NCBI GenBank assembly: GCA_905331295.1
Contig: CAJNYD010000027.1
Span: 62,001 to 108,786, forward strand
Source of the DNA: Rotaria socialis
Taxonomy: Eukaryota
Length of the DNA stretch: 46,786 nt
Direction of reading: 5' to 3'
A program made the position numbers and the translations under genes. The notes beneath the pieces were generated by a model. That model was given only the letters and a program-made list of their open reading frames with translations, had not been told where the DNA came from and made no database searches. The number at the start of each line of letters is the position of its first letter. Position 1 is the first letter of the stretch. Below are positions 10,388-11,310 of the stretch, one piece after another.

Positions 10388-10642
10388 ATGGGATTTGTCC
10401 GATTTTATAAAACTCGTTTAAGTCCGATTGTTACTCTAGTTGCAATTGTTGCTGGTATTCATATATCTTGGTGGTCAATTCAACAAAAGTTAGTTGTGAA
10501 GAAAAAAAAGAAATTATAATATATTCATTTTTCTAGTCCAGCACTTGTTCCTCCCTCTGAACGTCGCCGTAATTTATTAGGCTTTCGTATCCCGTATTTA
10601 TCGCCACCAGTTGCCGATAAGTATAACGAAAAAAGTGAATGA
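10388..10642 (+). CDS. Microprotein 1 (68 aa, single TM), first cistron of a putative tricistronic unit
   Basis: Exons 10388-10488 and 10537-10642 (GTTAGT..CTAG intron) give MGFVRFYKTRLSPIVTLVAIVAGIHISWWSIQQNPALVPPSERRRNLLGFRIPYLSPPVADKYNEKSE*. The stop TGA overlaps the next ATG. Confidence 0.75.
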
Positions 10643-10955
10643 GTACAACACAATCATCAACACCAGGTTACGATCCATTCAACGTTAAACCATTAAAAGT
10701 TCGTACGAGACGACTATTTGCACCTAGCGGAGGTTCTCTTTCATTAACAACAGCTACTGTGCTTATTGCTAGTATATCTGCGTGTTTTTATCTACTAGTA
10801 CCACTTGAATATATAAGGTAAACGAAGAAAGATAAAACAAGCAAAATATTATTATTACTGTTTTTTCGATTGATTTTAGACCCGAGATAATTGGTTGGAA
10901 TCGTGCATCTCGTGCTCGAGAAATACTTTTGAAAGAACAAGAACAACGAAAATAA
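10639..10955 (+). CDS. Microprotein 2 (84 aa, single TM), second cistron
   Basis: Exons 10639-10817 and 10880-10955 (GTAAAC..TTAG intron) give MSTTQSSTPGYDPFNVKPLKVRTRRLFAPSGGSLSLTTATVLIASISACFYLLVPLEYIRPEIIGWNRASRAREILLKEQEQRK*. Confidence 0.75.
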
Positions 10956-10957
10956 AC

Positions 10958-11310
10958 ATGGGCTTATTTAAAGAAGGTGTTTTTGCTTTTCGTGGTCGTC
11001 GATTTGTCGAATGGCTTTTCATGAATCGTCCTCAAATTCCTATTGCGTTTGGCGTTTCATTTTATACTTTGTTGTATCTTCATTATAAATATGATTTGAT
11101 TGCTCGATGGAAAGGCGAACCAATTTATAATGATTAGTATGTATTTCACTTATCGAATCATGCCTTTTTATTTTCATATTTATTCTATTATTATTTAGTT
11201 CCTATGTAAAACAAGCTGCTGAACACGAACGTACTACTCGTCTTACTGCTCTTTCTTCTTTCCCAACGCCTGAAACTTCTTCATCATCTTCATCAACCGG
11301 TGCTAGTTGA
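10958..11310 (+). CDS. Microprotein 3 (96 aa, single TM), third cistron
   Basis: Exons 10958-11136 and 11199-11310 (GTATGT..TTAG intron) give MGLFKEGVFAFRGRRFVEWLFMNRPQIPIAFGVSFYTLLYLHYKYDLIARWKGEPIYNDYSYVKQAAEHERTTRLTALSSFPTPETSSSSSSTGAS*. It starts 2 nt after the ORF2 stop. Confidence 0.75.

Follow-up and report, generated by a model that had tools for sequence, protein, structure and literature searches.

Three conserved small ORFs on a spliced-leader RNA behind TMA7 in the bdelloid rotifer Rotaria socialis, likely translated by leaky scanning and headed by a uMKKS1-like ORF

The leader of the human MKKS mRNA contains two small ORFs, uMKKS1 (63 aa; Q9HB66, LOC128706665, also termed micro-MKKS63) and uMKKS2 (50 aa; V9GZ13), whose peptides have both been found in mitochondrial membrane fractions (PMC11837024). 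The product of uMKKS1 is mitochondrial and its knockout lowers respiration (PMC13577902; PMC11837024). LOC128706665, described as an MKKS alternative protein, has a predicted link to complex IV or its assembly factors (bioRxiv 10.1101/2024.10.01.615885). In Drosophila, the small single-TM ORFs sloth1 and sloth2 are separated by a few nt, with a weak start context for the first and a strong one for the last, and their translation by leaky scanning was demonstrated using a reporter (PMC9681215). The silkworm uENF1-uENF2-PP transcript is an animal cellular mRNA with three ORFs, which are reached by context-dependent leaky scanning (PMC2978622). Bicistronic loci of green algae show the same kind of signature, i.e. 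a weak context of ORF1 and depletion of AUG triplets before the last ORF (PMC11892635). Rotifers have also been named among the lineages with operons resolved by spliced leader (SL) trans-splicing (PMC12460157).

The locus described here is located in a 46,786-nt stretch of the genome of Rotaria socialis (assembly GCA_905331295.1, contig CAJNYD010000027.1, positions 62,001 to 108,786 of the forward strand), hereafter called the window. It contains three conserved ORFs on an SL-capped RNA behind the TMA7 gene; these are likely translated separately by leaky scanning, and ORF1 is uMKKS1-like (we assign this reading a probability of roughly 0.7). The features of the locus, in window coordinates, are as follows.

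9922..10221, plus strand: TMA7 gene, likely the first cistron (57 aa; introns 9957-10014 and 10104-10170; Pfam PF09072, E 6e-7)
10308..10313, plus strand: TMA7 poly(A) signal AATAAA; TAATAAAT unchanged in all 5 aligned loci, 42-50 nt upstream of the acceptor
10338, 10339, 10356 and 10358, plus strand: sites of poly(A) addition to TMA7 RNA, supported by four loose ends in run X1 with A-tails of 19-22 letters
10358..10359, plus strand: trans-splice acceptor AG, with the SL joined to 10360 (20-letter SL end in X1; contig start at 10358 in 4 of 4 runs)
10360..10387, plus strand: AUG-free leader after the SL (28 nt here; 17-43 nt across 5 loci)
10388-10642, plus strand: ORF1, a predicted single-TM protein of 68 aa; GT-AG intron 10489-10536; weak start context, U at -3
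10639-10955, plus strand: ORF2, a predicted single-TM protein of 84 aa; intron 10818-10879; weakest start context, U at -3 and A at +4
10958-11310, plus strand: ORF3, 96 aa, with a marginal TM helix and a Ser-rich tail; intron 11137-11198; strong start context, A at -3 and G at +4
11311..11766, plus strand: 3′ UTR (the X1 contig reaches 11766; end provisional)

Like uMKKS1, of which it is a likely homolog, ORF1 comes first on a message with several ORFs and encodes a small predicted membrane protein. The rotifer message differs from that of MKKS in that it lacks the chaperonin, is SL-capped and lies behind TMA7, and its later ORFs (84 and 96 aa) have no shown link to uMKKS2. The close spacing of small single-TM ORFs and the weak first and strong last contexts are shared with sloth1/sloth2 (orthologs of SMIM4 and C12orf73/Brawnin), but these are two ORFs and proposed paralogs, whereas the three rotifer ORFs show no detectable paralogy. 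The silkworm ORFs encode secreted cytokine-like precursors of moths, are described without trans-splicing and have been shown to be translated (PMC2978622), whereas for the rotifer ORFs we infer translation. The algal loci mostly contain two ORFs and carry no SL, in contrast to the three ORFs and the SL found here. As in the SL-resolved operons of nematodes, tunicates and chaetognaths, the upstream gene (TMA7) is polyadenylated just ahead of the acceptor to which the SL is joined; there, trans-splicing gives rise to monocistronic mRNAs, whereas the unit released in the rotifer remains tricistronic. The rotifer unit would work like sloth1/sloth2 and uENF1-uENF2-PP, but is not homologous to them. 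The novelty lies in the combination: three microprotein genes, each with an intron and not detectably related to one another, form a tricistronic unit that a single SL releases from a likely operon headed by TMA7; no paper on the locus was recognizable by its title or the opening of its abstract among the matches listed in a literature search largely confined to papers outside subscription.

The RNA data comprised assembled contigs from the best 4 of 9 runs, originating from two studies; such contigs show no single molecules and drop rare isoforms, and the RNA status of the runs is the guess of the tool, for which the skipped introns provide the support. In all four runs a single contig, starting at 10358 and with the three introns skipped, leads from ORF1 into or through ORF3, ending at 11286, 11306, 11501 or 11766. 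The X1 contig starts with a 20-letter loose end that matches the Rotifera SL given in Table 1 of PMC3795323. The SL sequence is absent from the window, and the other three contigs carry 3-7 unplaced letters at the same start point. The motif TRTAGAT at the acceptor is kept in 5 of 5 loci. At the 3′ side, the contig of run X3 ends at 11501 with 8 A residues beside a genomic A-run, and an AATAAA sequence is located at 11586.

Inside the ORF1-ORF3 unit, the contigs of the four runs contain no SL loose end and no break. Since contigs of the same runs do break at the TMA7/ORF1 boundary, where the SL is added, this boundary acts as an internal control for the continuity of the three ORFs. A previous reading, made from the sequence only, had claimed a single mRNA with three ORFs, to be contradicted by SL-spliced monocistronic mRNAs for each; none of the latter were seen inside the unit in any of the four runs. 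The claim is well supported at the contig level (4 of 4 runs) and by conservation and selection, though not at the level of single molecules. We consider it very probable that ORF1-ORF3 constitute a tricistronic mRNA.

The three spliced ORFs of 68, 84 and 96 aa with one canonical intron each, as first read from the sequence, agree with the RNA in their coordinates, the introns being skipped in the contigs of all four runs. The introns are short, of GT-AG type and phase 2, with a G+C content of approximately 20%. Both of the tight junctions noted earlier are present: the ORF1 stop and the ORF2 start overlap in ATGA (10639-10642), and the ORF2 stop is followed by the ORF3 start after a 2-nt gap (TAA-AC-ATG, 10953-10960). 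In 3000 first-order Markov resamples of the spliced RNA, three chained ORFs of at least 60 aa with gaps within 10 nt never occurred, and two chained ORFs occurred in 10; this resampling was done on intron-free RNA and ignores the freedom of intron choice, which is fixed by the RNA data. The supposition that each ORF encodes a hydrophobic helix after a basic segment holds for ORF1 and ORF2 (best 19-residue Kyte-Doolittle means of 1.75 and 2.02, respectively), but is marginal for ORF3 (0.86), in which an uncharged 19-residue run is nevertheless present in 7 of 7 loci. RNA folding around the starts revealed no strong structure.

It had further been argued that the junctions leave no room for a trans-splice acceptor or a poly(A) site. 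This is not strictly correct: the acceptors of the cis-introns are located 102 or 78 nt upstream of the next AUG, with no AUG between, and an AATAAA sequence (10951-10956) overlaps the ORF2 stop. The latter is found in the window and in locus L004, and is absent at this place in the other five loci; no A-tail was found at this AATAAA in the RNA contigs of the four runs. Such a signal could yield a message containing only ORF1 and ORF2, and recalls the poly(A) signals of the MKKS leader.

The TMA7 gene, both introns of which are skipped in 4 of 4 runs, gives rise to contigs that are separate from those of the ORFs and end by 10339. Its polyadenylation occurs 0-20 nt before the SL acceptor, and the distance from its stop to the SL junction, on the same strand, is 138 nt. 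TMA7 is present upstream of ORF1 in all five related loci that reach that far. In SL1-type operons of Caenorhabditis elegans the poly(A) sites abut the acceptor, which resembles the TMA7 junction. Because the TMA7 poly(A) sites abut an acceptor that receives an SL, the arrangement likely represents an SL-resolved operon with a tricistronic second unit; TMA7 and ORF1-ORF3 would be co-transcribed. It may also be that ORF1-ORF3 are transcribed from an internal promoter within TMA7.

Upstream, a gene encoding a PP1 catalytic subunit (9395, minus strand) and TMA7 (9922, plus strand) are arranged head to head, with their starts 526 nt apart. The divergent PP1 gene was found in the two loci that extend past TMA7, the arrangement being kept in L004/L005. 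The gap between PP1 and TMA7 is likely a bidirectional promoter.

Downstream of the unit, ORF3 is followed by the 3′ UTR. The next gene is an oxidoreductase-like ORF on the minus strand in the window and an unassigned ORF in L001 and L004; a match to a chaperonin such as MKKS/BBS6 was found for none of them. A plus-strand ORF without a Pfam family is packed tightly behind ORF3 in L001 (approximately 1752-2730) and L004 (3519-4350), with no match in the window; in L004 it is followed by an SH2/tyrosine kinase gene (4499-5930), and the operon may extend there. Several other features of the window were recorded: (i) an intronless ORF of 512 codons (12713-14251, minus strand; also present in L001) with sub-cut-off matches to ferric-reductase FAD/NAD-binding domains, an oxidoreductase-like candidate that could have been acquired horizontally, (ii) an ORF matching the bacterial YscW/lipoprotein chaperone family (28361-28753, plus strand; PF09619, E 3e-19), also a candidate for horizontal acquisition, (iii) an intronless arginase-family ORF (22900-23922, plus strand; E 4e-73), (iv) three near-identical frames starting with MWSLPSLP (29441-29866, 30421-30786 and 35396-35800, minus strand), without a Pfam match, which represent a local repeat or a small mobile element, and (v) a unit of approximately 250 nt in two or three tandem near-copies (16081-16601), seen as repeated peptide stretches.

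A scan of metagenomes gave 261 pattern matches, from which 7 loci were confirmed; L005, a near-copy of L004, was dropped from the counts, and the loci are related, so that the counts given here are not independent. Conserved gene order and dN/dS below 1 had been proposed as a check of the locus, and both were found: the order ORF1-ORF2-ORF3 is kept in 7 of 7 loci, and each of the 17 pairwise comparisons with the window gives a dN/dS between 0.14 and 0.59. That these values are not very low is due in part to the small dS of such AT-rich sequences. The intron positions are also kept, with the exception of L004 (and L005), which has no intron in ORF2 (L004 2734-2973); the six others have it. The closest named relatives of the ORFs are from Rotaria, with identity of up to 92% across part of ORF3.

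The gene models available in databases are discordant. P0034 of Rotaria magnacalcarata is a fusion of TMA7, ORF1 and ORF3, and P0038 of Adineta steineri is a fusion of ORF1 and ORF2, which shows that the ORFs are linked in named species as well. The expectation that gene predictors would miss or fuse the ORFs is thus borne out by these two models, but not by those of Rotaria sp. Silwood2, in which the ORFs are called separately. The fused models (P0047 is a further example) might be taken to mean that the ORFs are exons of one protein, joined by alternative splicing, readthrough or frameshifting; in L003, ORF1 and ORF2 are indeed in frame across one TGA, and the length of the spacer between ORF2 and ORF3 is divisible by three in 5 of the 7 loci. 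We regard this as very improbable and largely refuted. Splicing that fuses the ORFs, which had been named as evidence against separate ORFs, left no joint in any of the four runs, and at neither junction is the frame constant among loci. Because the fused models conflict with one another and with the RNA joints, we regard them as errors of the predictors. At the position of the P0060 stop, P0059 has W, suggesting that a predictor misread a TGA.

According to the scanning model, a purine at -3 together with G at +4 makes a strong start. The start contexts differ among the three ORFs. At -3, U was found for ORF1 in all five readable loci and for ORF2 in all seven, the latter always together with A at +4, whereas the ORF3 start combines A at -3 with G at +4 in 7 of 7. 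Of eight starts of neighbouring genes, seven carry a purine at -3. Between the ORF1 and ORF3 starts, summed over the loci, only 1 extra AUG occurs in 3105 nt, versus 43.5-49.7 expected, while AUGs within ORF3 number 40 versus 28.5 expected. Synonymous resampling gave P values for this avoidance of 0.0003 for the window and 0.002-0.03 for five other loci. Codon choice shows the same trend. Where a Tyr, His, Asn or Asp codon stands before G, it ends in C in 14 of 16 cases in ORF1 and ORF2 (the ORF2 start itself being one of the two exceptions), versus 10 of 84 elsewhere in these ORFs and 4 of 25 in ORF3; this signal amounts to 5 distinct aligned sites in related loci, with 1 true violation (L001). 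A similar count for A before TGN codons (0/32 vs 12/17) was set aside, many of these sites being forced by the amino acid.

The sequence-only reading had noted the ATGA overlap. The downstream ORFs might be translated mainly by termination-reinitiation at overlapping or adjacent stops and starts. The overlap is present in 5 of 7 loci, the ORF2-ORF3 gap is only 2 nt in the window, the ORFs are short, and loss of AUGs near a stop fits reinitiation as well (PMC11892635). Against this, junction 1 (ORF1/ORF2) varies: five loci have -4, L003 has 0 and L004 has -26. Junction 2 (ORF2/ORF3) ranges from 2 to 27 nt. A TGA precedes the ORF2 AUG in all loci, so that the context of this start is kept and its spacing is not. 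Moreover, AUGs are purged throughout ORF1 and ORF2 and not just near the stops, and coupling would not favour a weak ORF1 start. Reinitiation as the main route is therefore quite unlikely, although it may contribute. As the ATGA overlap varies among loci and the ORF2 start context is kept, leaky scanning is favoured over stop-start coupling and, judging from these sequence patterns, is probably the main route to ORF2 and ORF3. The 5′ SL trans-splicing, the position directly behind TMA7 in a likely operon, and a signature of leaky scanning instead of ATGA coupling are the features that had been missed earlier.

The tricistronic RNA might also be a precursor or minor form, with ORF2 and ORF3 produced mostly from shorter messages, made by addition of the SL at the acceptors 10536 or 10879 or at an AG approximately 60 nt before ORF2, or by cleavage at the AATAAA at 10951. 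SL trans-splicing exists in this animal and is used at the locus, each intron acceptor precedes the next AUG with an AUG-free interval, all 7 loci have a TTAG or CTAG 56-60 nt ahead of ORF2, and rare forms drop out of contigs. Nevertheless, we consider this unlikely, since no SL end or break was seen within the unit in the four runs, and L004 has neither the ORF2 intron nor an AG within 60 nt of the ORF3 start. The conserved AG before ORF2 is accounted for by a conserved Leu-Gly codon pair. The avoidance of AUG extends to the first exons (synonymous resampling of first exons only: P 0.0064 for the window, below 0.05 in 2 of 6 loci), and monocistronic messages would not need weak start contexts.

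We also searched for relatives of the three proteins. In the Atlas search, the top match of ORF1 was a chordate cluster named 'LOC128706665 homolog' (0.94, 213/256 features), followed by further chordate and arthropod clusters (0.94 and 0.93); against this background, shuffled proteins reach 0.9 in 4-10 of 100 cases. A profile search of the full library with ORF1 gave 17 matches, in which the named non-rotifer sequences were from a bivalve (E 5e-4) and a beetle (E 7e-4); P0046, which is included in the 17, was rejected as a repeat artefact. No named vertebrate sequence was recovered by this profile at E 0.001 (10 remote or weak matches and 5 others were looked up). In the alignment of 13 sequences, residues F6, R10, H25, W28, Q32 and V38 are common to all. 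The ORF1 homologs (66-74 aa) contain, in 6 of 6 loci, three K/R and no acidic residue before a helix with a Kyte-Doolittle mean of 1.5-1.8, and ORF1 has the uMKKS1-like format of approximately 60-75 aa, a basic N-terminus and a single hydrophobic segment. Its AUG is also the first one downstream of the SL, on a contig that includes ORF2 and ORF3 as well. On the basis of this sequence comparison, we consider ORF1 a likely member of the uMKKS1 family.

The affiliation of the other two proteins is less apparent. Word-seeded searches with ORF2 and ORF3 returned only close relatives, and neither Pfam nor PDB sequence searches, the Atlas (ORF2 only) or fold comparison (ORF3 only) gave an informative relative outside bdelloids. 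Pfam contained no relevant family for ORF1-ORF3, their full-length homologs (at E 10, with two irrelevant weak matches) or the remote matches of ORF1, and the search of PDB by sequence gave nothing meaningful for the ORFs. Homology to SMIM4 or C12orf73 was not indicated by any Pfam match; Brawnin (PF14990) appeared only at rank 17 (0.83) of the Atlas search with ORF1. The ORF2 model consists of a single long helix (residues 36-59). The Atlas matches of ORF2, to bacterial peptidase M56 clusters, were at most 0.89, bacterial or unnamed, and were rejected as chance; in the comparison with uMKKS2, all ORF2 Atlas matches were below 0.9. The ORF3 model (pLDDT 69, helices only) was uninformative, with a best Foldseek E of 2.8 and a best VIA Z of 4.3. 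Profiles of the three ORFs, which are shallow, showed no relationship among themselves in hhalign (probability 0.2-0.3%, E 0.18-0.29).

The three products had been proposed as possibly mitochondrial inner-membrane proteins. A mitochondrial location gains support for ORF1 only, via its likely link to uMKKS1/LOC128706665, and nothing ties ORF2 or ORF3 to mitochondria. That all three act in one mitochondrial pathway is a tentative suggestion, which we consider somewhat doubtful. ORF1 and ORF2 could instead be regulatory uORFs with conserved peptides that tune ORF3, or the three ORFs could be unrelated passengers on a housekeeping transcript. The human MKKS uORFs repress the main ORF, and the profile-profile comparisons among the three proteins were not significant; on the other hand, the three resemble one another in size, in having an intron and in being TM-like, they are conserved to an equal degree, and human uMKKS1 is a stable, functional protein (PMC13577902). 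This alternative, which appears possible but not probable, concerns function and is compatible with the RNA model that we prefer, i.e. separate translation of three ORFs on one SL-capped RNA.

In this preferred model, a promoter in the divergent PP1/TMA7 gap would transcribe TMA7 and the three ORFs together. The contigs then show polyadenylation of the TMA7 RNA at 10338-10358, joining of the SL at 10360, and removal of the three introns, with no additional SL or break seen. Judging by the start contexts, ribosomes scanning from the SL cap would initiate partly at the weak ORF1 AUG and partly at the weaker ORF2 AUG, the rest reaching the strong ORF3 AUG; ORF1 and ORF2 appear to have been purged of AUG triplets so that scanning reaches ORF3. 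The products would be single-pass membrane proteins made in a fixed ratio, of which ORF1 is likely mitochondrial like its human counterpart, and ORF2 and ORF3 may act with it, the latter being the weakest step of the model. A more far-reaching and speculative reading, which we hold to be doubtful, is that of a bdelloid mitochondrial membrane module of three proteins, encoded by one leaky-scanning mRNA nested in a trans-spliced operon. It would comprise a uMKKS1 ortholog and two unrecognised partners, one possibly a diverged uMKKS2, in a ratio set by start context.

Tricistronic cellular mRNAs are rare in animals, and the rotifer example has an unusually clean and conserved reading signature. 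Two polycistronic strategies are stacked at this locus: trans-splicing separates TMA7, and translation would separate the three ORFs. The locus also shows that in public annotations of bdelloids ORFs of this kind are merged into false proteins. The finding of a likely relative of uMKKS1 in first place on a multi-ORF message that lacks MKKS suggests that occupying the first place on a message shared with other ORFs is an enduring trait of this microprotein. ORF2 and ORF3 provide two conserved candidate partners for the human microprotein, which is needed for the respiration of microglial cells (PMC13577902) but lacks a mechanism. If the module reading is true, they would be candidate partners of a human microprotein predicted to act at complex IV, and the fact that SL splitting is available (it is used at the adjacent TMA7 junction) and yet unused between the three ORFs would imply selection for coupled output.
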